Shown here piece by piece: positions 1-18,489 of a stretch of 64,000 nt of DNA. The stretch's first letter is position 1; each line of letters opens with the position of its first letter. The position numbers and the translations under genes are program-made. The stretch is from Macrostomum lignano (taxonomy: Eukaryota). The stretch lies in assembly GCA_002269645.1 (NCBI GenBank), contig NIVC01001154.1, positions 1 through 64,000 on the forward strand, in the 5' to 3' direction. The notes under the pieces are model-generated. The model saw nothing but the letters and a program-made list of their open reading frames with translations. It was not told where the DNA came from and ran no database searches.

Positions 1-280
1 TATTTTCCTTTTTGCAGTAATTGGAGTCTTCTGTTCCAAAAGCTGGCGTATATATCTGCGATGCTTTCAAGTCGTCTTTTGTTACAGTTACTAATTTTAA
101 TACGTCCACTAATAATATTAAAACAGAAAGTCTACTAGACATCGTATCTCCGACTCTGAAAGTGTTTGTAAAAACTTTTCTCTGCTTTGGATGCTTTAGC
201 CGATAAACAATTTGTAGTAAAAAAGCACACTGACACAATGAGCGAGCATTTTGTTTTCCTTTTTCTGTTAGTTCGCTCAT
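1..280 (-). pseudogene. Small basic Maverick-type ORF downstream of penton, frameshifted, truncated by window edge
   Basis: ATG at 280; manual translation with two 1-nt shifts at T-runs gives ...KQRKVLQTLSESEIRCLVDFLFNIISGRIKISNCNKRRLESIADIY...LLQKGK, resembling from memory the small basic ORF that often neighbours Maverick pentons. Confidence 0.4.
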
Positions 281-325
281 TCTTACAAAACAAATTCACA
301 AAATTTTCTATTACACAATTAATCT

Positions 326-334
326 TTGCTTATA
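326..334 (-). promoter_or_regulatory. TATAAGCAA motif (candidate viral TATA box) 46 nt upstream of ATG 280; overlaps penton stop codon
   Basis: Identical 9-mer at 326-334, 1368-1376 and 2527-2535, each just upstream of a minus-strand viral ORF. Confidence 0.45.
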
Positions 335-1325
335 AATTAGTCCGACCTATGTTTAAAATGCAGTACGACAACAACGTGTGCTCCGGATCAAAATTAAACG
401 GTTTTCCGCGCTGGTCCGATAGTCGAATCGAAATCTCGTGAATTTGTTGTCGATTTGTTTTCAAGTAGTAGGGTGTTTGCAATGCACTGCTATCGCGTAT
501 AAGTTCTCCGTTTTTCTTTTGTTGGAGTTCCACAACTCGAAGCAACGGTACTGATGTACTTCCCACTGCTTGATACTCGATTATATCTGTGTAACAGTAC
601 ATGTAAACCGTTTTACTAGGCATCGGAGAAGGTAGCACAGCATCCAAGTAGGTTTTGTTAATGCGCCAAACACGATTTCTCAACCAATATTGGTGTACTT
701 TGATGTACACTTCTCCTTCCGTTTTTCGAAGATAGTCTCCATGCGAAACAAGTCGTATAGCTTCACCAGGCGATAGAACACAATAAAAAACATAATAGTT
801 CTCAGGTACTAGCGCTAGAGTATTGTCGAGACTTTTTATCAAATCCAAGTATGAACCATCCGGTGGTTGTACACTACCAGCGGCAGGTTTTGATAATTTT
901 TCCGAGACAAGTCCAGAAAGTTTCTTCCAAGAGTCAAATTTGAAAGCGTCCATAAATGTAACTGGTAGTTCTAATCCAATAGTTTTTTCGCCTGAATTTC
1001 GTAAAAGCCAGGCAAATTTTTCATCTGTACCAGACGGTTGCCAGGAAACGTAAGCATCCAAGTCTGCCTCTGCCCAAACACGACCCCAATAGTTTTTCTT
1101 TAATCGTATTATTGAGTCAATGTCCGCAAAATATGGAACTTCAAATCGACGCTCACGATGAGCATTTGGCGTCGTAATTGCTCCATGGCACAGTAATTCA
1201 ACTAGTGCAACCTCGAAGAATCCGTTCAATAAATTTATTGGTTCAGTTAGTCGCACTCGAAATTCATTAGGCGAGTTGGTTTCGTAACTGATATCGTTTG
1301 ACGGCAAAAAAACGTAAAAACTCAT
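330..1325 (-). CDS. Minor capsid protein (penton), Polinton/adintovirus type; intact, ~331 aa
   Basis: N-terminal MSFYVFLPSN...NEFRVRLTEPINL...FEVALVEL and C-terminal YCYTDIIEYQAVGSTSVPLLRVV...YYLKTNRQQIHEISIRLSDQRG match the characteristic Maverick penton pattern; ATG at 1325. Confidence 0.85.
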   Translation of the reverse strand: MSFYVFLPSNDISYETNSPNEFRVRLTEPINLLNGFFEVALVELLCHGAITTPNAHRERRFEVPYFADIDSIIRLKKNYWGRVWAEADLDAYVSWQPSGTDEKFAWLLRNSGEKTIGLELPVTFMDAFKFDSWKKLSGLVSEKLSKPAAGSVQPPDGSYLDLIKSLDNTLALVPENYYVFYCVLSPGEAIRLVSHGDYLRKTEGEVYIKVHQYWLRNRVWRINKTYLDAVLPSPMPSKTVYMYCYTDIIEYQAVGSTSVPLLRVVELQQKKNGELIRDSSALQTPYYLKTNRQQIHEISIRLSDQRGKPFNFDPEHTLLSYCILNIGRTNL

Positions 1326-1367
1326 TTTGAAATAAAACACAAACTAATATTGACAACAGTTTATAAT

Positions 1368-1376
1368 TTGCTTATA
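1368..1376 (-). promoter_or_regulatory. TATAAGCAA motif 43 nt upstream of penton ATG
   Basis: Same 9-mer, in the short gap between ATPase stop (1383) and penton start (1325). Confidence 0.45.
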
Positions 1377-1382
1377 ATAATA

Positions 1383-2070
1383 TTACACAAACTTTGCATC
1401 ACATTCACGAGTATAGACAACTTGTTCATCACCAGAAAATATTCCTGTTCTCAATCGTAAAAAATCTGGTGTCACTTGCCGCAGGTCAATGAATAAATAT
1501 GAAAAAGGTTTGTTATTTGTTGCGTCTTCATACACATTCACTAGAAACCTACTATTACGCGATACATTTGTCGACCGAGATGTTCAACTGTGGTTCGATC
1601 GCGCACACTACGAGTTAGACAAATATAACTAGCTGATAAACTTCGCATGCGTGCTTCTGGATCAGACTTGTTAAAAAGACCTTGACAAAGGTACAGACAA
1701 GTCAAAGGGATATGATGCGCATGCTTTGTAAACATACTAGTAAATTCTGGCAACTTAGCAATCTCGCTTTGCAAGTCGTCAACAACAACCAAATCGTGTG
1801 GTAAAAACGATTAATCATCTGTGGTGTGAATTCGGGTACAAAAACAATAGGGTCAAGACCGCTTTTTTGCCAGCATGTTCTAATTCGTTGTTGATCGTCT
1901 GGTTTCAAACTTGATCCATGGCACCAAACAAGACGGCACGGTTTTTTATCAAATAATTCTTTTCGTTCAGTCAACAAACGCAACGTCCATTCAGTTTTAC
2001 CCGAGTTTGAAGGTCCAGCAATAATAAATGTAGAATCGTGAGCTAGTTGCATATTGTATGGCTGCTGCAT
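1383..2070 (-). pseudogene. A32/FtsK-like DNA packaging ATPase, two apparent 1-nt deletions
   Basis: Walker A FIIAGPSNSGKT, Walker B VVVDDLQ, then Q-x-LF-N-K and GRQMY(P)RNSRFLVNVYEDAT...FSYLFIDL...LRLRTGIF. Frame is restored by adding one T near 1805 and one C near 1560 (minus-strand sense). Confidence 0.9.
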
Positions 2071-2072
2071 TT

Positions 2073-2514
2073 TCAAGCACCAAAGCGTTGCTTAACTTGC
2101 ATAACCTTGGTAACCAACTTCGCAGCTAGTTTTTCTTTCCAACCAGTAGACGGATCGTGGGCAATCTCTCGTGCACGATTCTAATAGCTTATCAGCTTTT
2201 AACCTCTCTTGCACGTCAGAATTTTTATCATAGGCCACGTCGTGAAGCATGCACAAATTGTCAAGCCGATTAATTCCTCGTTGTCCTTTTGCTAGCCTAG
2301 CTTGCAGTTGCGTACCTGGACCACAAAACTGATATCCGCCGGGTAAATGTGCTTCAAATGGTAAATGATTAATTAACCAATTTACGACACCATAACCTTG
2401 TTGCTTTTTATTAATCTTTCTAATAGATTTCTTCTTTTTACGAATGCTCTTCTTTTTCTTTTTAAAACCTCGATCTTTCGCTGGAGACATTTTTACAACA
2501 TATATTTTAGGCAT
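2073..2514 (-). pseudogene. Parvovirus-like phospholipase A2 (PLA2X) with Lys-rich N-terminus; one frameshift near 2180
   Basis: HLPGGYQFCGPGT Ca-binding loop and GINRLDNLCMLHDVAY catalytic HD motif; shifted frame continues RAREIAHDPSTGWKEKLAAKLVTKVMQVKQRFGA* ending at TGA 2073. Confidence 0.85.
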
Positions 2515-2526
2515 AAATTTTTAAAA

Positions 2527-2535
2527 TTGCTTATA
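2527..2535 (-). promoter_or_regulatory. TATAAGCAA motif upstream of PLA2 ORF (37 nt from ATG 2490, 13 nt from ATG 2514)
   Basis: Third identical copy of the 9-mer. Confidence 0.4.
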
Positions 2536-2605
2536 GTATTTACAAAGCTCTCGCATAGTGCACCAATCACCAAAGAAAAAAATCAGTTTATTATTATTAT
2601 TATAC

Positions 2606-3084
2606 TTATTGGCCAGTGCTGCCAAAGCCGCCAAAGCCGCGCCGCTTGGTCGGCGGCTCAATCATCCGAATCGAATTGTCTGCTTCAGTCACATAGACTG
2701 AAGCAAGCACGGCCTGCTCCAGAACCAGTTGTGCAATACTGAGCCCGGCATAGTACTCAAAGTCTTCCGGACTGTAATTAAACAAGACTATACAGATTTC
2801 ACCAGTATAGTCGGGGTCGATTACGCCACCGCCAACAAATAAGCTGTGCAGAGCCATGCTGGAACGTCCCTATCCTGCCATAGGTACCAGGCGGTAAGCG
2901 AATTTTGAGTCCGGTTCGCACACTCCGGGACTCGTAGGCCGGAATGGTACCATCGACGCCGCGCAAAGATCATACCCGATCGACCCGACAGTTTTTCGGG
3001 TCGGAATCGTTGCCGAATCGTATAGACGTTCAACTAAAAGCTTACGATCAGTTAGTTGTTGTTGCTGCTGCTGCTCGGATTCAT
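2606..3084 (-). pseudogene. dut: Trimeric dUTPase, split by frameshifts
   Basis: All five motifs recoverable across frames: GSIGYDL; GTYGRI-x-GRSSMA; GVIDPDYTGEI; GLSIAQLV; RGFGGFGSTG. Start position approximate. Confidence 0.9.
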
Positions 3085-3413
3085 GTCGATTCTTGTAGCT
3101 GAAAGTTTAAAAAAAAGTTTTTTTTCTTGAAACATGAACGATAGCACTACATTTACGTCTACTACAAACACAAGCTTAGTCTTGAGAATCTAACTATAAA
3201 AAATATACTTTTTCAAATAATTAAACACAAAAAAGTGCTAAAATTATAATTTAAACGAATGCCGGTATCATTTATTTATTGTAAATAATGATCAATGAAA
3301 AAATTAATGATGGGTTACAGTCTTCTATAGCATGCTATTACTTTGTACAACAAAAGAGATCAGAGCATATTGTTAATTAATTAGCCAAGTGCCAGTGTCC
3401 AAAGGGTAGCGAA

Positions 3414-4451
3414 TTAATTGAACTTGTCCAGGATCGCTTCGTATCGAAGAAGCTTAGTGCAAGTTTTCTTTGTTGCATCAAAAAAAACTTTCTGTTTTCG
3501 AGAACGAATGGACTGTATGCGCGAAAACACAAGTTGTCGCTTGTGTAAGACTCTTAAATAGTCTTGATGCTTTAAACTGCTCTGTGCGGCTTTAGAAGCA
3601 GTACTGCTCCAGCTTTGCGACCGATTGAGACTGGAACTTTAAACGATTGCTGCTTAACCAGACCGGACCGGACTGGACCGGACCGGACTGGACCGGACTC
3701 CCCGCGCCCGCCGCCGCCGCGCCGCCGCCGCACCACCACCACCACCACCGCCGCCACCACCACCACTGCCGCCGCCCGCCCCCACACCACCGTGGGACGT
3801 ATTTGTTGACAGTGTGCTTGCATGGCTTTTGCGATAAACGCAGAGCATCAAGTCTAGCTGCTCGATTGCTCTATATTGCCAATTACTACCTCGAGATTGA
3901 AAATTGTCAATTTTTATTAACAACTGATTAATAACGCGTGCGAACCAGTCATTGTAGGCCTCGGGAGATAACAGCATGTCACTGTTTGTAATCGTCTCAT
4001 CAAATGATATTGTCGCAATGTTGGTATTAAAATAGACCGAAATGATCTCTTCGCTGCTCGAGCCATCGTTGTCGTCTGCTGCTGTTTTCGGTCGAAATAG
4101 TGTCACTTTCAAGTGAAAGCAGACTCTTATTAATAAACTGGGTGAGCCAATTTTTTCCAATATTTTAAATATTGGTTCTCTTAAAGACGCAATCAACTCG
4201 CCAGGAAGTAACTCGCCAGAGCTGTTGCCTTGTTGTTCAAGAGTGGGAGTAAATTCGACAAAATTTACCCGACCACGATGAGCTGACTCGCGCAAAGCGA
4301 TGGACCACCCATCTGGTGGGTTTTCGATCAGGTTTTGCAGCGATCCGGTCAGTAATCGTTGCGGTGAAAAACAAGCACCATGCGAGTGAGCATGCAGCTC
4401 GGCTTGATTACTGAACTTTTTTCTGCAGATTTGGCATTGTGCACGCGGCAT
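3414..4451 (-). pseudogene. Zn-finger plus GSxW-motif protein resembling the N-terminal region of Polinton protein-primed PolB, with a microsatellite-derived Gly-rich insert; no polymerase core
   Basis: CQICRKKFSNQAELHAH (C2H2-like) and IDNFQSRGSNWQYRAIEQLDLMLCVY; downstream of the (CCG/CCA/CCGGA)n tract, shifted frames give SFKVPVSIGRKAGAV and TTCVFAH. 3' end approximate. Confidence 0.5.
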
Positions 4452-4674
4452 TGTGTGCACCTAGCTCGACAACGAGCGTATCGAGCATAATATTAATAGA
4501 TGATCCGGTTTGTCATTTGCGGCTGTAAGAAAAATGATGATTTGGTTAGTTATAGGTATAGCTGACACGTTTACTATTAGAGAAAACAATTGGTAAATAA
4601 ATAAAAAAAGACAAAATGTTTGTAAAAGAATGCATCGCAACTGCGATTTGACAGCAATTGTTTACTTGTTAAGT

Positions 4675-5268
4675 TTAGTTATTAACAGAGATTAAAAAAT
4701 CCTTGACATGGTTAAGAATATTATTCAATTCATGAGTGTTTTGAACGCCCATAATAACAAACTTTTTCGAAAAAAATATGTTACAAAAAAGCCTTGGTTT
4801 TGATGCTGATCTAACAGAAACTGCTTGTGGGAAATTTTCTGCATCGTATCCAACCAGATAATTCGAATAGTAGCCTGCATATCTTTTTAGACTAGAGAAA
4901 CCGAATTTTGGCCAAAGATGACCAATAAAGCCGACATAGGTACTGCTCTGAATTTTTACTGAATCAAAATCTACACAATTAATAGTGTCGTTGATAAATC
5001 GTAAAACTGAGACTATCTGAGAATTTGATTTACAGCCATATATAGTTAGTTTTCCTGCTGGATAAAGTTGGATTTTAGCATTTGAATAAATTGTCTTTAG
5101 CATTGTTGGTCGGCTTAGGAATAGTTTGCAAAACCGGTTTCTGGTCTGTAGCTTCTGTTTGGTCTGCTTTAAATCAAATTTTCAAACGGGTGCAGCTTCA
5201 GACTCGCAGTAACTATTAATAGGACAAGTCGCTAAAACGGAAAATAAATAATAAGAAAAGTTAAACAT
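4675..5268 (-). CDS. TBP: TATA-binding protein (TBP)-like, two-repeat saddle; one in-frame TGA at 5182-5184
   Basis: KFDLKQ ~ KLDLKT; AKIQLYPAGKLTIYGCKS ~ TALIFSSGKMVCTGAKS; FDSVKIQS ~ FLDFKIQN; YDAENFPQAVSVRSASKPRLFCNIFFSKKFVIMGVQ ~ [34 protein letters not shown] (comparison with the human TBP core from memory). ATG 5268 is in frame with ORF 4675..5103. Confidence 0.8.
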
Positions 5269-5440
5269 GACTATACTATCGTAAATTCTAATATTAAATT
5301 ACAAAACCTGGTTAGCGTACAAGGAGTAGCAAAAATGTTTTGAGCTTTTCCCTAAAAAATAATATTTCCCTAGCCAAAAATTTGATAAATATAGTGGAAT
5401 AAGTTAGTTAAAACTTGGATAAAATTAGTCAAAAATTTTG

Positions 5441-6271
5441 TTACTCATCATCAGAGCTGCTGTACGAGTCGTCCGATGAAGACACGCTAGCTGTAGTAGC
5501 GTCCGCAGCAGCACGCTTTAAAAATGCTGTCTCCTTGGACGCTACCCTGGTTCCAGAGGCAGGTGTACTCACCAAGATCTTTGCTGGTGGAGCCTCCACC
5601 CAGTCTGTGCCATCTGCACCAGCTTCGGCAGAATTGTTTTGCTGTTTTGCACCGCTGCGTTTTCGAACTTGCTTTTTAGGCGGCGGTTCAATAGAGGCTG
5701 GCGCTGCATTCGATGTAGTCGACTTCTTCGATACGGTGGTGGTAGACCGACGCTTTGCAGGTGACTTGGCAGGTGTCACCTGGCTTGAATTCTGCAGGCT
5801 TTGTTCATTTGCTTCTTCTTGCTCACAGGTAGATGTTGGGGACGGACTCCTGCTTCTAATTGCTGACTTGGTCGCGGGTAGGTGTGCAAGCACTCCCTTG
5901 AACATGTCGAGGCGCTGCAACATGTTGTCGGAAGATTCTATGAGTGTCAGAGAGCGCACAGCGAATGTAATGCGCCAGACGAGGCAGCCTTTTGGACAAT
6001 ACAAGCTCGTTGCTTGCACTGTCATTTGGTAGGTACCGCTGACACCTTTGAAATCGGAAATGGACACCTCCTTCCCGTGTGGATGATCGTTGCTGATCCT
6101 GATTGTGGCACAAGGGTAAGCAGGCTTTATAGCCAGCCATTGTTGAGGCACAAACTCGAGGACGTCGTTAGCATGCTGATGAGCTGGTTTTGTTAGTCGT
6201 GCCAAGGGTCGAGCATCTTGAATCTCGTTCAACTTGACCGATAGACCTTTTTCGACTTGACTGCAAAACAT
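5441..6271 (-). CDS. Hypothetical viral protein, 276 aa: globular N-terminus, S/T/K-rich disordered C-terminus with NLS-like PPKKQVRKR and acidic tail
   Basis: Long ATG-initiated ORF, co-oriented and tightly packed within the element; no family recognised with confidence. Confidence 0.65.
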   Translation of the reverse strand: MFCSQVEKGLSVKLNEIQDARPLARLTKPAHQHANDVLEFVPQQWLAIKPAYPCATIRISNDHPHGKEVSISDFKGVSGTYQMTVQATSLYCPKGCLVWRITFAVRSLTLIESSDNMLQRLDMFKGVLAHLPATKSAIRSRSPSPTSTCEQEEANEQSLQNSSQVTPAKSPAKRRSTTTVSKKSTTSNAAPASIEPPPKKQVRKRSGAKQQNNSAEAGADGTDWVEAPPAKILVSTPASGTRVASKETAFLKRAAADATTASVSSSDDSYSSSDDE

Positions 6272-6327
6272 TATATAAATTATGAATATAGTTTCCTAAA
6301 ATTAATTGTATAAATTTAATATGGTGC

Positions 6328-6812
6328 TCACCGGAGAGAGTGGAAGAGTTCCTTATCGCAGCTGTCTGGATGAAATTGGACACTTACTGCGTCGCGAGAG
6401 TCGTGTCTGCAAGACGGATGATCGAGCTCTGGCCTTTCTGCGATTCCACGAAAAAGCTCCATTGGAGCCTTGGTTTGCAATATAATTGGGTACCATTTTG
6501 TACACTCGATTGATGGTTTCCACGCAATAGATCGAAACTGGCAGGACGAACCAGTCGTGGTTGTAGACTGCTCTCCAACGTAAAAAATCGGACTCGAGTC
6601 GGAGCGTACAATTGACTCCGTCTTGATGCAAGCTGCCATGTCTTACAAGCAATTGAATATAGTATTTCTTTTGCTGTAATGATTGAGCTCATGAAAAATT
6701 GACCATTTCGGGTCTTGTATTTATAGCAAGCTTTGCATGCTGTTTGTGAACTAGTAAACAAATTTAATTGTTGCGTGCTGATTAAGACATTGTTGCGTGC
6801 CAAAGGTGGCAT
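6328..6812 (-). CDS. Hypothetical viral ORF(s); true reading frame ambiguous, probably frameshifted
   Basis: Three overlapping minus-strand ORFs (6328-6639, 6353-6652, 6384-6812) occupy a gene-sized slot in the co-oriented cluster. Confidence 0.35.
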
Positions 6813-7329
6813 AAGTTTCTAGGGTGGGTTGCATGATTAGATCTAATTTTACGCAAATGTAGGTTGATATTTTATACAATAAAATTAATGAATCTTAGGC
6901 ACACTAGTTATAAATTTGCAAGAGTAACACGATGGCAAGCGTTTAATAAGAAGACTGCTGGTTGCTGCTTCATTAGATTGGTTTTGTTCTCAAGTAGAAT
7001 GTAATTAAAATATTTTGCGACTTGAAAAATTAGCAATCTTGGATTTTAGAGTAAAAATAAGCTGCACGCGGTGCTATGAAATTAATTTATTGAAAGTTTT
7101 GCTTGCATGTTGGAATTTTTTAGCTCGCACGGTGACAAGAGATTGCTTGAGTAACCTATATATAGAGTGTTACTTTTCAAACAGAAAAAGGTATAGTTGT
7201 AACTCAGCTTTTGCAGTCCTATATTGAGCAGAAGCTATATAGAGTTACACTATCATGCTGCGACGCGCAGCTTGTTGGGACTATAATGACTGCCGCTGCT
7301 ATAACCGCATGCAGTCAGTGCAGTTGACA

Positions 7330-8040
7330 CACAAATGCTGTTTGGACTAAGCTAAATTACTGTGTTGAGACAGTTAAGCTGGACCACGGCTAAATCACTA
7401 TTGATACGGTTAATTGCTACTAGACCCATGGCTAAATCACTGTACGTTGAGACGGTTAAGCTGGACCACGACTAAATCGCTGTACGTTGAGACGGTGGTT
7501 AAGCTGGACCATGGTTATAAAACTGGACGGGTGGTTAAGCTGGACGACTACAGCTAAAATTACTGTTGAGTCAGTTATGCTAGACCACAGCAGCCAAATC
7601 ACAGTTGAGGTAAAGCTGACCATAGCTAATTCTCACTGTTGAGACGGGTGCTGCTGCTTGGCTCACAGCTAAATAACTGGACAGTTAAGCTAATCGGACT
7701 ACAGCTAAATCCCTGTTGAGACAGTTGCCTGGACCACAGCTAAAATCACTGTTGAGGCAGTTAAGTCTGGACAACAGCTAAAATTACTGTTGAGACAGTT
7801 AAGCCTTGACTATAGCTAAATCATCGTTGAGGTAGTTAAGCCTGGACTATAGCTAAATCACTGTTGATGCAGTTTTAAGCTAGACCACAGCTAAATCATA
7901 CTGCTGAGGCAAAAAAGCCGGACCACGGCTAAAAACTGTTGAGGCAAAAGCTGGACCACAGCTAAATCATACTGTTGAGGCAAAAGCTGGACCACAGCTA
8001 AATCATACTGTTGAGGCAAAAGCCAGACCATGGCTAAAGA
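7330..8040. repeat. Degenerate tandem array, ~35-40 bp unit (GTTAAGCTGGACCACAGCTAAATCACTGTTGAGACA-like)
   Basis: Roughly 18 diverged copies readable directly. Confidence 0.85.
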
Positions 8041-8288
8041 AACGTATGAAAAAAAAATTATTTGCATGGATTAATAATTTTTGTTTAATGATGACTGTAC
8101 AAGATATTGACTTTATATTGAATTAAATAATTTCAATAAATGGCGAATAAAATTGAAAGAATTTTTTAGAATAATGAATTTATAGAGATTATATTATTGA
8201 TTACAGACTTGTTTGATATATACTAAAAGAGCAATTACTTGGACACATTGCTGGCAAAATTTTATGAAGAGTTAGAAAAAATGTCTTT

Positions 8289-8840
8289 TTAAGATAGGTC
8301 CCAATATTCAAATACTTGAGTTGTATTACAGGTCTTTGGTAATTCTACTTGGTAGAAGCCTGTGCTCATTTGAGAGACTTTTACAGACTTGATGTCCTTC
8401 TGTACAATAATTGGCGAGTTTAGCAGCGGTTGAACTTGGGTAGAAATAGCAATTGATGATGATGGTGTTTCAGTTGCTGTCGTTGGTTTGGTACTTGTAG
8501 GCTTACTGCAAGTTTGCTTTGTTGGGTCATTGTAGCTGGTTGGTGATGGTGGTGGTGGTGCATACTGCAGTTGGTCAGTTGGTCGTGGGTTCGATTGCTG
8601 CCTAATTGACTGAATAACATCAGTTCTTGTGTAAATGCGATCTAGCTCAGTTGTCTGTCTCTCGACATGAATCGAGGTTACTCTGGCGAGAGATGTAGAA
8701 TATGATGCTCTTGCAGCAGAATTGGATGTGGTGGTGTCGTGGCAAATGCGTTTGCACTGATCTGGAGGTGGCCGCGTGAAGAAACCATTCTTGAATGCTA
8801 TAATAATGGATAAGATGAGGGAAATTTGGTATAGGTGCAT
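8289..8840 (-). CDS. Hypothetical 183-aa protein with hydrophobic N-terminus (signal/anchor) and T/S/P-rich body
   Basis: ATG-initiated intronless ORF, LYQISLILSIIIAF then mucin-like region; membership of the viral element is uncertain. Confidence 0.4.
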   Translation of the reverse strand: MHLYQISLILSIIIAFKNGFFTRPPPDQCKRICHDTTTSNSAARASYSTSLARVTSIHVERQTTELDRIYTRTDVIQSIRQQSNPRPTDQLQYAPPPPSPTSYNDPTKQTCSKPTSTKPTTATETPSSSIAISTQVQPLLNSPIIVQKDIKSVKVSQMSTGFYQVELPKTCNTTQVFEYWDLS

Positions 8841-8857
8841 GTATACAATGTATATAG

Positions 8858-9085
8858 AAACTGAACTAGCAGAGAATCAGTCTAAACAGAAACCGAACTA
8901 GCAGACAATCAATCTAGAAATTCTGAACTAGCAGAGTATTAGTCTAAACAGAAACCGAACTAGCAGAAAATCAATCTAGAGACTGAACAAACAGAGGATC
9001 GGTCTAAACAGAAACCGAACTAACAATCAATCTAGAAACTAAACTATAGCGAATAGTCAATCTAAAAAAGAAAACTGAACTAGAG
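8858..9085. repeat. Degenerate array, ~30-bp halves forming a ~62-bp dimer (AAACAGAAACCGAACTAGCAGA..AATCAATCTAG)
   Basis: Recurrent GAACTAGCAGA and TCTAAACAGAAACCGAACTA words. Confidence 0.75.
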
Positions 9086-9894
9086 TAGGTGATTATCTTA
9101 CCTTGTTTAACATAGCGCTCGGCCAATTCCTGCTGACGTGATCGCTTCATTTCACTTAAGATGTAAGTATAGTTGAACAAGTAGTATAATGTAAACTTGG
9201 TTTAAGTTATTTAATATTTTCTGTGTCAGTGTGTTCGTATATATATATAGTATAAAGAAGAAGCATGTTGACGCAGTTGTTGACATAGTATCTGTAAACC
9301 ATCTGCTCAAGTTGGTGCAAAAATTCTATAGGCACTCAAGAATAGATCATTTACTATCTTTCTTCAAAAGGGTGATAATATTCACAAGTTTTCAATATTT
9401 CAAAAACACTTGAAATGTGTGAATAGCTTTGGAGTAAATTTGTCTTGAATGGAATCCTTTGAAGTGTGTTTGTGTCACCATTGCTAGAATCGGTTACTTG
9501 TATTTTGGACAGGTGGATATGCAATTCGTCTGAATAATCACGTTGCGTAAAAGATATTTAGCGTGCACATGGAATTTCAGACTGCGTGCACATGAAATTT
9601 CGGACTCTGCCATTTTTTTGGGCCTGTACTTACTATGTATTTCGCCATAAGGAAATCGGCTTTGTGTCAAAAAAACGTATACTACTCCCACCAACCACCT
9701 CATCTTCAACCCGGATCACTGCCCTGATTGCGCAACAGGCTTCCCATGTCTCCGCGATTTCAATACCCTTTTCACATTTCCTCCCATCTGCAGCGCGCGG
9801 GCATGCGATGTTCAACTCTCTCTTCTGAATAGAGAAGCTGAAACTGGATCAAATATTTTCAGCATTCCTGATGGCTGAGCTGACTCAAAACCTC

Positions 9895-15702: not shown

Positions 15703-16662
15703 TCAATCGGTCAGCGGCACGGCCAGCTCCTTGCGCTGGACCAGCTGCAGCAGGCTCTGATAATTAACGCTAGACTCCGTGTCGACGCCGCTATCAAACT
15801 CGTGCAGTACCTGCTGCAGCAGTTGAATGTACTCAATTGTGATTCGAAGTGTTTTCACCTTTGATAGACGCTTGTTGCGCTTCTCGTACGGGATGTACCT
15901 GCGGGGCAAGGGTTGGCGCAGTCTGTATATAAAGTTTTAAAAGGACGTCTTGAACTATAGTTTATACGAGGTAATGTGTTTTTCTAGTCAATATTAATCG
16001 AAGCCATGCAATATTGATAATATTTTAAATTTATATTCATACTTATTCATCATTTAAAAGAATTATAGGGAGAGAAAGAAATCTAGGTGGGTATCGGTTA
16101 ATTCTGATGTTTACAACTTTATTCTATGGGGTATTCTCATTTCTCAAGGCGATTTTTGTAAGGGTATTCTTAGGTTTATTTTGGGGGTATTTATTCTTAG
16201 GGTATTTTTGATGGTATTCTAGTGGTATATTGGGGGTATTCTCGGGCGATTTTCAGGCGCATTCTTAGCGGAAATATTTAGCAAAGAGAGGGGTATTATG
16301 GGGACAATAAGGGATAGATAATATCGTAACTGTCATGGCTTCAGATCCAACAGAACAGCAAACAGAACAGCAAACAGAACAGCGAACAGAACAACAAACA
16401 GAACAGCAAACAGAACAGCAAACAGAACAGCGAACAGAACAACAAACAGAACAGCAAACAGAACAGCAAACAGAACAGCAAACAGAACAGCGAACAGAAC
16501 AACAAACAGAACAGCAAACAGAACAACAAACAGAACAGCAAACAGAACAGCTGAAAAGAAAACTCACTTCCTCAGCCTGGCAAACGCCGAGTTCACCGCT
16601 TCAACTCTGCGCCGCTCCCTGGCGTTCCTCTTCGCCACCATCAACGGCGTCTTCACTTTCGT

Positions 16663-16700
<38 letters not shown>

Positions 16701-17319
16701 TAACAGACCCTGGCGTCGCAGCCTCGCCGCCGCAAGGCGCGGAGGCCGACTTTGTCAGCTTTCGATTATTCCTGCCCGAGCAGCCGCCTGTAGCCGGGAC
16801 GGTGGCCGAGGAGGCGGCGCAGGGGTATAAAGGAGGCGAAGCCCCGGTCAGCAGCGAGGAGGAGACACTTGACGTCGAGTCTGTCGGGAGCCGCGGCTGC
16901 TGCTGCTGGACCTCATCGTCGTCCTCGGCTGTCCCGGCGGCCAGCAAGAAGCCACCACCGGAGCAGTCGGAGGCCTCGGCAGGGGAGGCCAGATAGGCCA
17001 CTGGGCTGGACGAGTAGCCAGCTGAGCAGGTTGGCAAACTGTTTGCGAAGATTGGCGGCTGCTGCTGCTGCTGGTACTGGAGCTGCTGGTACAGCTGGTG
17101 CTGTTCATCAAAGTCAGCCAACTGGTGCTGATACTGCTGGGGATGCTGCGGCAGCAGAAGCTCACCCTGATGATGAAGCACCTGACAGGTTGGCTGATTG
17201 ATGTAGATAAAATCAGAGCCGGGCAGAGGCTGAGGCTGGCTATGCCAGTGCGGATAAACTCCGCTGTCACCGCAGCCGCTCAGATACAAAATTCCACATT
17301 TGCTGTCAACATCCGCCAT
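15703..17319 (-). CDS. ASCL: Achaete-scute-superfamily bHLH transcription factor; exons 17319-16568 and 15898-15703
   Basis: Spliced bHLH VAKRNARERRRVEAVNSAFARLRK|YIPYEKRNKRLSKVKTLRITIEYIQLLQQVL; donor GTGAGT at 16567 and acceptor CAG at 15901-15899 join AA+G = Lys in frame. Subfamily unresolved. Confidence 0.88.
16345..16550. repeat. 12-bp minisatellite (ACAGAACAGCAA) in the bHLH intron
   Basis: Direct reading; starts about 15 bp from the splice donor. Confidence 0.95.
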
Positions 17320-18489
17320 GCTGTGTTAACTTTTGCTGCTCTGCTAATAACTCACTGGGGGGGGGATTAATGCTAGGGAGGGTGCTTGCAGTTTGTGCTG
17401 GCAGTTTTCTATCCGGGCAAGTTTGTCGCGGGTGCTGTCTCCGCCCCGCGGGCCGGTCGCGCTGCTCTCATTGGTCCGCTGACTGGTGGCGGCGGGCCTG
17501 CAGCCACCCCCACCACCCCCTCCCTGTCCCCCCGGCTCAAGTCATCAAGGAGTTGGAAAATCCAGTCAACACTTGGACTGGAGACCGCCAGTTCTGTCTG
17601 TCTACTTAAGTTTATTAAGTCCATTTTTCCAAGTGGTTGGGGTCAGATGACTCCCGTTTTGACCCCCTCCCCTAGATCTAAGGGTCATGGCGACCCCGTT
17701 GTTGACTTCTGAAGTTGTGTATTCAACCAAAAAGCAATGAGATACTTAGTGTCTTAGCCCATCAACTATAATAAATAATAATAATAATAATAATAATATT
17801 TCTTTTGTAGAGTTCATTTCGTCTGTTAACTTCATCATTTCTCTTACGTTTACGTTTAAAAAGCTTATAAACTGTGTTTCTATCAATATTTTCTGTTTTA
17901 GAATATTTTAGCTTTCGAACTTCATGAATTTTCCGATTGGCCTGCAAGGGCAGCGATCGGGCAGAGGGGGCCGGCCACAAGCAATGGGAGAAAAATCACC
18001 TGCTCCTTTCTTTTTCACTCGTGCCTGACTTGCTTCCTTTTTTAACTGCCTAGTGCTGCTGCAGAACTCAGTTGCTTATAACTCAACCGAGTCCACTCAC
18101 TGTCTTCTATAAGCACCCACTCCCAGTTCTCAACCAAGGAAATAATTTTGTTATATTGACTGGAAGATCATTGGGTCCTGATACGATCTTGCTATACTGG
18201 CCACTTCTTGAATATAGAATTCAAATTTATTCTATGCATAGTTTATATTAGCTATGCATAGCCAAGTTTGTTTTAAACAATAAATGACAGACTTTAAACT
18301 ACAGCAGCGGCAGAGGCTTAAATTTATACCTTTAAACGCTGCAAACTAGAGGGGAGTGAATAGAGAGGGAATAGGGGGAGTCAGAGAAGAGGAAAGAGAC
18401 GAGATGAGAGAAGACAGAAGAGAGCAGAGAAGAGACAAACATTGAGCAGGCCGGATTGCTATTGTGAAGTTTTCTATGGGGAGCTGATG

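Follow-up and report, generated by a model that had tools for sequence, protein, structure and literature searches.

Virion genes of a Polinton/Maverick in the flatworm Macrostomum lignano are preceded by a short box, TATAAG(C), which is real, conserved and probably the late core promoter of the clade to which the element belongs. The element lies in the first 64,000 nucleotides of contig NIVC01001154.1 (the window, i.e., the whole stretch analysed), of which bases 1-9,686 are one end of the Polinton, cut by the contig start. Comparisons of sequence make us nearly certain that the box is conserved as a regulatory element of these genes. Its spacing, its likeness to a TATA box and the presence in the element of a gene for a TATA-binding protein (TBP) make it likely to be a TATA-type core promoter. 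With less assurance, we lean towards a TATA-type late core promoter that would be read by the element's own TBP together with RNA polymerase II (Pol II) of the host.

The box in the window family

The original prediction rested on a nine-letter motif, TATAAGCAA, placed on the minus strand at 326-334, 1368-1376 and 2527-2535, with a further copy at 18072-18080. We found all four copies at these positions; 0.68 are expected in the whole window, and none of 100 shuffles reached four. Counted from its first T, the motif stands 54 nt before the ATG of the small basic open reading frame (ORF), 51 nt before that of the penton, and 21 and 45 nt before the first and second ATG of the phospholipase A2 (PLA2) gene, in agreement with the predicted distances of 46, 43 and 37 nt, which had been measured from the opposite end of the motif. 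The copy at 326-334 overlaps the penton stop codon, as predicted. The three spacers are 76-83% A+T, and when they were shuffled TATAAG appeared in all three in 11 of 20,000 trials. Identity over nine letters holds for the three copies within the element, but the conserved unit is only TATAAG(C), since the last two A's vary. The three motifs are present in all ten copies of the element that were fetched, out of 20 full-length matches.

The part of the virion module outside the window, read in another natural copy, has five further TATAAG on the coding strand, 98, 64, 50, 158 and 134 nt upstream of the starts of the 229-aa, 62-aa, 152-aa, major capsid protein (MCP) and protease genes. The module (7,271 nt) carries eight TATAAG in sense and one in antisense, and the boxed genes are those of PLA2, the penton, the pX-like core protein, the integrase region, the second basic protein and MCP. 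When 6- and 7-mers were counted without bias and compared with a second-order background, TATAAGC ranked first (six in sense, none in antisense, 0.36 expected). A comparison with the A+T-matched background, suggested together with the prediction, showed the motif to be enriched and confined to the virion module. TATAAG is absent from both strands of the early half of the element (2600-9686), which agrees with the earlier statement that the motif does not precede the TBP ORF or those then called ZnF and 276-aa. The ATPase gene had been described as lacking the motif; it has no exact copy, but one-mismatch variants occur at 2193 and 2201. The canonical TATA box is TATAWAWR, a consensus without a match on either strand of window positions 1-2600.

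We treated the copy at 18072 as a chance occurrence; TATAAGC is found seven times in the 54.3 kb of host DNA (both strands). It lies about 750 nt upstream, on the same strand, of a host ORF (16564-17319) ending in a sequence that resembles a basic helix-loop-helix basic region, presumably akin to achaete-scute. This association is probably fortuitous.

Conservation in sister families

Conservation was analysed within one genome, that of Macrostomum lignano. The window clade comprises the window family (W) and families A, B, B2, C and D, and the counts out of six given below refer to these; the truncated or rearranged sisters L027, L029 and L031 were left out of the counts and keep boxes where genes remain. 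Families A, B, B2, C and D are 62-66% identical to the window family in the ATPase and 38-56% in the penton. Four-fold degenerate sites of the integrase and MCP genes are 23-35% identical in all ten pairs of the lineages W, A, B, C and D, i.e., they are saturated.

The positional conservation that had been named as a check held across these diverged families. The box precedes the penton gene in all six (43-54 nt before the start), as it does the basic, pX-like gene (43-88 nt) and the MCP gene (124-165 nt). It precedes the 152-aa gene in five (46-52 nt), the sixth having one mismatch, and the small ORF before the integrase in five (41-64 nt). The PLA2 gene has it in four. The conserved ORF of 57-99 aa between box and integrase (L013:8628-8816, with homologous places in L020, L022, L024, L025 and L040) implies that the integrase would be the second ORF of that transcript. 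In family A, a duplication of 111 nt before PLA2 doubles two boxes (L018:838-1015).

Two observations show that the conservation reflects selection on the nucleotides. The MCP box sits inside the 152-aa frame, where all six families spell it xxT-ATA-AGC, with different neighbouring residues; codon use predicts this spelling at 0-0.027 per family. The penton box falls between genes in W; in A, B, B2 and C it codes for Ile-Ser at the end of the ATPase, and in D it overlaps the stop codon. Both it and the box of the basic gene persist, although they shift in phase relative to the upstream frame.

For most genes the distance from the first T of the box to the start is 41-64 nt, which leaves room for a transcription start near +30. 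Several sites, read by eye, tolerate ATG triplets in the first 30 nt after the box. The choice between an element at -30 and an initiator is based on distances read from box placements.

The TBP of the element

In the window, an AG acceptor-like site directly precedes the start of the TBP domain, which lies upstream of the first ATG (5103). A natural frame of the window-family protein was modelled with a mean pLDDT of 93 (alignment of 11 rows), and Foldseek matched the model to TBP structures (best E 7.6e-9, TM 0.68, 20% identity). As modelled, the protein has the two lobes of a TBP fold, with changes on the surface that faces DNA. The TBPs of these elements consist of the core only, about 175-200 aa.

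We compared residues with the host TBP of the same genome. The window clade keeps both phenylalanines of the C-lobe, the proline that follows them and the acidic stirrup, whose second glutamate is invariant in the 11 rows. On the DNA face, a C-lobe leucine is replaced by asparagine in all six families, and tyrosine takes the place of the second N-lobe phenylalanine. The N-lobe would meet the 3' half of the box, where the window clade departs from TATAAA. In TBP, the phenylalanines introduce a kink into the DNA, the proline gives preference to T at position 1 and the acidic residues bind TFIIB, and the herpesvirus TBP mimic has a polar DNA face (accessible text of PMC12529657). Clades G and J have lost the proline, and their boxes vary at position 1.

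In a tree the TBPs group by element clade on long branches, which we did not use as evidence of co-evolution. Protein searches gave eight TBP-like relatives, plus a handful among the best of 3,308 representatives; the named ones are from the same flatworm or are cellular TBPs, and the others came without context. Queries with the N-terminal half of the capsid protein or a capsid alignment found no related loci in a viral contig collection. One metagenome locus considered as a related element was rejected as a spurious match.

Boxes and TBP genes in other Polinton clades

Elements whose ATPases are 31-35% identical to that of the window family have a different gene order and little TATAAG. They have other boxes. 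The G-type elements carry TTAAGAA six to eight times in sense and never in antisense (0.5-0.8 expected; 6/6 elements), and the J elements carry TAAGAA six or seven times in sense and never in antisense (2/2). In K, where one element was read, TATAAATA occurs six times in sense and not in antisense; the variant of this clade is overall TA[T/C]AAATA, and with the form TACAAATA included, a box stands before all eight module genes. The G, J and K boxes precede integrase, penton, core, MCP, ATPase and basic genes. When ORFs were called mechanically, 7/8 boxes in W, 5/6 in A, 6/7 in B, 4/6 in D, 6/7 in G, 6/8 in F and 7/8 in K fell within intervals upstream of gene starts, which cover 18-20% of the sequence. 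Three of the four variants (W, G and J) contain (A/T)TAAG, and K has TAAA.

All families of the window clade have a TBP homologue, and so do G, F and J (Pfam E 5e-26 to 6e-19) and, by alignment only, K. Two Polinton groups gave no TBP match with the profile that finds the others, the positive controls being rows of that profile, and showed no enrichment of any of the boxes. A clade-specific box is thus present in four of four TBP-bearing clades and in neither of the two TBP-less groups, a pairing that is suggestive, though not one of independent co-evolution. Three polymerase-only elements without a virion module (L067-L075) were dropped from the TBP-less control. They are small, occur in many copies and encode a protein-primed polymerase and one or two short ORFs, with no virion genes.

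In the two TBP-less groups, X (L062-L063, L065) and Z (L077-L081), only short T-run or A-run tracts immediately precede the ATG, and genes that stand head to head are some 30 nt apart, an arrangement like that of viruses whose genes are transcribed by a polymerase in the cytoplasm. At least 113 capsid matches, 96-100% alike, belong to group Z. Clade G encodes a homologue of the PC4/p15 coactivator (Pfam PF02229, L036:3438-4181) behind a canonical TATA box, i.e., a second transcription factor beside TBP.

The early genes

A GT-AG intron of 71 nt (6261-6331) joins ORFs of 103 and 276 aa, and it is skipped in contigs assembled from two of four sequencing runs, whose status as RNA we guessed. The 276-aa ORF, previously taken for a gene of its own, is therefore a second exon, and its apparent ATG lies in the intron. 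A canonical TATA box stands 86-102 nt before the homologous early ORF in the four families checked. The canonical box and the skipped intron indicate that host Pol II and the spliceosome act on the element.

The run contigs contain a second GT-AG joint, of 300 nt, near the element end (L014:8880-9181). Pyrimidine-rich, AG acceptor-like sites stand immediately before the frames of TBP and the polymerase (window 5231 and upstream of 4451; L021, L055, L056), for TBP in phase in several families, and these frames have no start codon of their own there. Cis-splicing or leader trans-splicing of the early genes is likely from this arrangement. For the virion genes, the assembled contigs of the four runs, out of 24, show no ends, leader-like loose ends or joints, which says nothing about start sites.

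A model for late transcription and its alternatives

We propose that the box is the core promoter of the morphogenesis (late) genes, about 30 nt upstream of the start site and one per transcript. Host TBP and Pol II would start the early end at the canonical TATA box, and the transcript would be spliced (the box and one intron are observed). TBP and polymerase would then be made from early exons that are led by the acceptor-like sites. The element TBP would bind the variant box, dock host TFIIB through its retained acidic stirrup and recruit Pol II, so that the capsid, core, PLA2, integrase and ATPase genes could be switched on together. By drift, each Polinton clade may have come to have a TBP and a box of its own, and so late promoters that are private to it. 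Cognate recognition of the box by the element's TBP is on balance favoured. We consider more tentatively that animal Polintons may run an autonomous nuclear early-to-late cascade, with TBP-less ones depending on a helper polymerase. It is equally conjectural that such a cascade would combine a minimal TBP re-specified in each lineage, a private TATA variant and borrowed host TFIIB and Pol II into orthogonal late programmes across co-resident families.

The original prediction of a late promoter class for the viral TBP gained from the enrichment, the conservation, the TBP fold and the pairing of TBP and box, but several results weigh against it, some of them against exclusive recognition by that TBP. 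In HeLa cells, TATAAGA or TATAAGT alone supports expression like that from miniCMV, which places TATAAG within reach of cellular TBP; TATAAGC is not among the HeLa variants shown in the accessible text (PMC13732139). The TBP gene itself has a box 65-80 nt upstream in G, F, H and L, so that a priming route would be needed, and in G and F it lacks a canonical TATA within 200 nt. In one G element, TATAAGCAA stands 11 nt ahead of the polymerase frame. The element TBP lacks the first canonical phenylalanine of the N-lobe and both canonical asparagines, and its DNA binding is therefore putative only. K has no proline, yet T is at position 1 in 8/8 boxes. Coverage of the module is incomplete, with a box in one of six families for the ATPase and for the 229-aa gene and in two for the dUTPase, and the protease-side box (four of six) is doubtful because its TATAAGG spells conserved Tyr-Lys-Glu codons of the MCP C-terminus. 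The motifs behind the P values and placement counts were chosen after looking. Box and TBP both follow element descent, so that the four clades do not count as four separate co-changes; the TBP-less groups also differ from the TBP-bearing clades in many other ways.

The HeLa results and the TBP genes of G and F behind the box also speak for the strongest alternative, in which host TBP/TFIID reads the box as a weak variant of TATA and lateness comes from template amplification or another activator. The element TBP would then do other work, e.g., as a Mot1/NC2 decoy, in host shut-off, or in RNA or origin binding. The main K variant, TATAAATA, fits the canonical consensus as well. However, CTTAAGAA and its variants have no TATA at all, and a host factor should fix one consensus per genome, whereas each clade keeps a different one. 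The window clade has no canonical box in 1-2600, while its early gene has one. We regard both the host-TBP reading and the other duties it assigns to the element TBP as unlikely, though not negligible.

An initiator for the RNA polymerase of a helper virus, with transcription starting inside the box, is a poorer candidate. Its models are the baculovirus late motif (A/T/G)TAAG and the giant-virus late promoters used by virophages. The W, G and J variants share the (A/T)TAAG core, baculovirus late genes start in or around TAAG, with TATAAGG enriched upstream of ORFs (accessible text of PMC5997678), and virophages use helper promoters (accessible text of 10.1101/2022.07.28.501842). Yet K has TAAA and not TAAG, the flanks are clade-specific, and no conserved start lies less than 41 nt from the box in the window clade. 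The boxed elements are spliced and carry TBP, whereas the short A+T leaders that would suit a helper polymerase belong to the TBP-less groups. Searches of the genome for LEF-8 and VLTF3 were empty, lacked a working positive control and were not used as evidence.

Improbable, and somewhat more so, is a signal at the RNA level, for 3'-end formation or trans-splicing, that would cut one long transcript into single-gene messages. The genes follow one another on a single strand, several boxes share letters with the upstream stop codon, box sites are crossed by run contigs, and about 30% of Macrostomum lignano genes are trans-spliced to a spliced leader (accessible text of PMC8629364). But boxes reach as far as 166 nt into the upstream coding sequence, which cleavage would truncate. 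The first module gene has a box and none follows the last gene in the window family, and an RNA signal of the host would be expected to be the same in all clades. Chance in A+T-rich DNA, or constraint from protein coding there, which fits the protease-side copy (conserved Tyr-Lys codons, lost in two of six families), the preference of Lys-Lys codons for TTAAGAA and the copy at 18072 in host DNA, is very improbable and, save for the protease-side copy, largely refuted by the strand bias, the shuffles, the placement and the conservation across saturated lineages with changing frame phase.

Gene content of the element

The genome of Macrostomum lignano has at least 20 full-length matches of the window element at 99-100% identity, which indicates recent spread. 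The one copy in hand with both ends measures 14,728 bp and has inverted repeats of 104 bp and a 6-bp target duplication. All genes are on one strand. The early half contains the early gene (two exons), TBP, the N-terminal part of the polymerase and dUTPase; the virion module runs PLA2, ATPase, penton, pX-like basic, 229-aa, 62-aa, integrase, 152-aa basic, MCP and protease. The frames of PLA2, ATPase, dUTPase and TBP are broken in the window copy (Table 1).

Table 1. Features of the Polinton end in the window
Feature	Position	Strand	Evidence
Small basic virion core protein, adenovirus pX-like C-terminus, cut by contig start	1..280	-	Pfam Adeno_PX
TATAAG(C) box, 54 nt upstream of small basic (pX-like) ATG, overlaps penton stop codon	326..334	-	
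Putative penton (minor capsid protein)	330..1325	-	gene position
TATAAG(C) box, 51 nt upstream of penton ATG	1368..1376	-	
Packaging ATPase, frame broken (three pieces in window)	1386..2070	-	P-loop near N-terminus
Parvovirus-type PLA2 domain protein, frame broken	2073..2514	-	Pfam PF08398 E 1.3e-8
One-mismatch variant within PLA2 coding sequence, about 125 nt before ATPase start; doubtful	2187..2193	-	
TATAAG(C) box, first of virion module, 45 nt upstream of second in-frame PLA2 ATG	2527..2535	-	
dUTPase, frame broken; no box in window family	2606..3135	-	Pfam PF00692
N-terminal part of protein-primed B polymerase	3654..4451	-	tblastn 48-53% to start of sister-family PolB frames
TBP-fold gene, 5' part of frame broken	4675..5231	-	Pfam TBP E 2.3e-7
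First early gene, exon 1 (ATG 6639) and exon 2 (276-aa ORF)	5441..6639	-	intron joint in run contigs
Canonical TATA box, 86 nt before first early ATG	6718..6725	-	
Terminal inverted repeat, 104 bp, AGTAGT-type end motif	9583..9686	.	96% to other end of another copy

By tblastn to sister-family PolB, the ORF once labelled ZnF is the N-terminal part of the protein-primed polymerase, whose catalytic part the window family lacks; sister families have a full frame with PF03175. The window family also lacks a deoxynucleoside kinase gene, present, like most of the polymerase, in sister families (3654-5231; L021, L023, L026). It is a non-autonomous deletion derivative that has recently spread, its copies (at least 20) being 99-100% alike. 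Two arrays of degenerate 30-40 nt repeats (window 7340-8050 and 8830-9040) lie between the first early promoter and the terminal repeat.

The integrase, read in another copy, matches Pfam rve over the cut-off and has a chromodomain. An MCP of a sister family, 78% identical to the N-terminal half of that of the window family, scored 0.98 in the Atlas to F54H12.2/DJR-like clusters, i.e., double-jelly-roll proteins. The pX-like protein of another copy matches Adeno_PX below the cut-off (E 4.6e-5), and that of family A at the cut-off. The protease match is weak (Peptidase_C5, E 0.038), and the ATPase is a P-loop ORF without a Pfam A32 match. The penton has no Pfam match, and its Atlas look-alikes are unnamed eukaryote or Nucleocytoviricota clusters, a weak recognition; we take it to be the penton from its gene position and the usual Polinton layout. 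The named relatives of the window proteins are labelled as Macrostomum lignano.

Comparison with known systems

Polintons/Mavericks (adintoviruses) commonly have an integrase, an F54H12.2-type double-jelly-roll capsid, an ATPase, a protease, PLA2, a pX-like protein, AGTAGT ends and a 6-bp duplication. The element has the retroviral-type integrase, the double-jelly-roll MCP, the 6-bp duplication and inverted repeats with AGT-type ends, as described in the accessible text of PMC8097293. In the literature searched, with subscription journals outside its coverage, we found no paper on the late promoters of animal Polintons. The main texts, as accessible, of PMC8097293, PMC8502044, PMC11296320, 10.1101/2024.03.25.586562, 10.1101/2023.10.06.561300, 10.1101/2023.08.22.554363 and 10.64898/2026.10.13.758929 contain no promoter analysis. 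They mention TBP once, in a figure legend of PMC8502044, and the supplements may list TBP genes; in the coral paper among them capsid genes cluster apart in expression.

The box bears on how Polintons time their capsid genes, and on whether those of animals can act as viruses by themselves or depend on a helper. A defined box tells exactly where 5' ends should be sought and makes for a simple test of binding, and it could help to find small virion ORFs and to sort Polintons by sequence into nuclear and helper-dependent types. If the proposed pairing is true, the clades would be TBP/box pairs that form a natural series, from which to learn how the specificity of TBP can be rewritten.

The baculovirus late motif (A/T/G)TAAG is similar in its TAAG core, shared by three of the four clades, upstream of structural genes. 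It is an initiator for a viral polymerase, whereas the Polinton spacing and TBP gene point to an element at -30, and one clade has TAAA. Nucleocytoviricota have TBP and TFIIB homologues, and their divergent TBP, with an N-lobe surface that is not conserved, is comparable (accessible text of PMC7221094). A TFIIB and a polymerase of their own are almost always present in those viruses, whereas in the 15-18 kb Polintons Pfam scans of the main ORFs, which are not an exhaustive search, showed neither.

The closest parallel is with the late promoters of beta- and gamma-herpesviruses, in which a TATT box is read by a viral TBP mimic (BcRF1 of Epstein-Barr virus, ORF24 of Kaposi's sarcoma-associated herpesvirus, UL87 of human cytomegalovirus) with host Pol II. 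Both have a virus-encoded TBP fold with a more polar DNA face, a TATA variant that appears to be the only element ahead of structural genes and canonical TATA boxes at early genes (accessible texts of PMC4893493 and PMC12529657). A non-canonical variant before structural genes together with a canonical TATA before early genes is found in W, G and J; the K variant is mostly canonical. Unlike the herpesvirus mimics, the Polinton TBP is a bare core of about 180 aa with no known six-protein complex. It keeps the acidic TFIIB-contact residues that ORF24 lacks, and the variant differs between clades within one host. Since this core-only TBP has no Pol II-binding domain of its own, the Polinton system would by analogy work like the TATT system without being a member of it. 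If so, the herpesvirus solution to late transcription has a second example, which is independent and far smaller.

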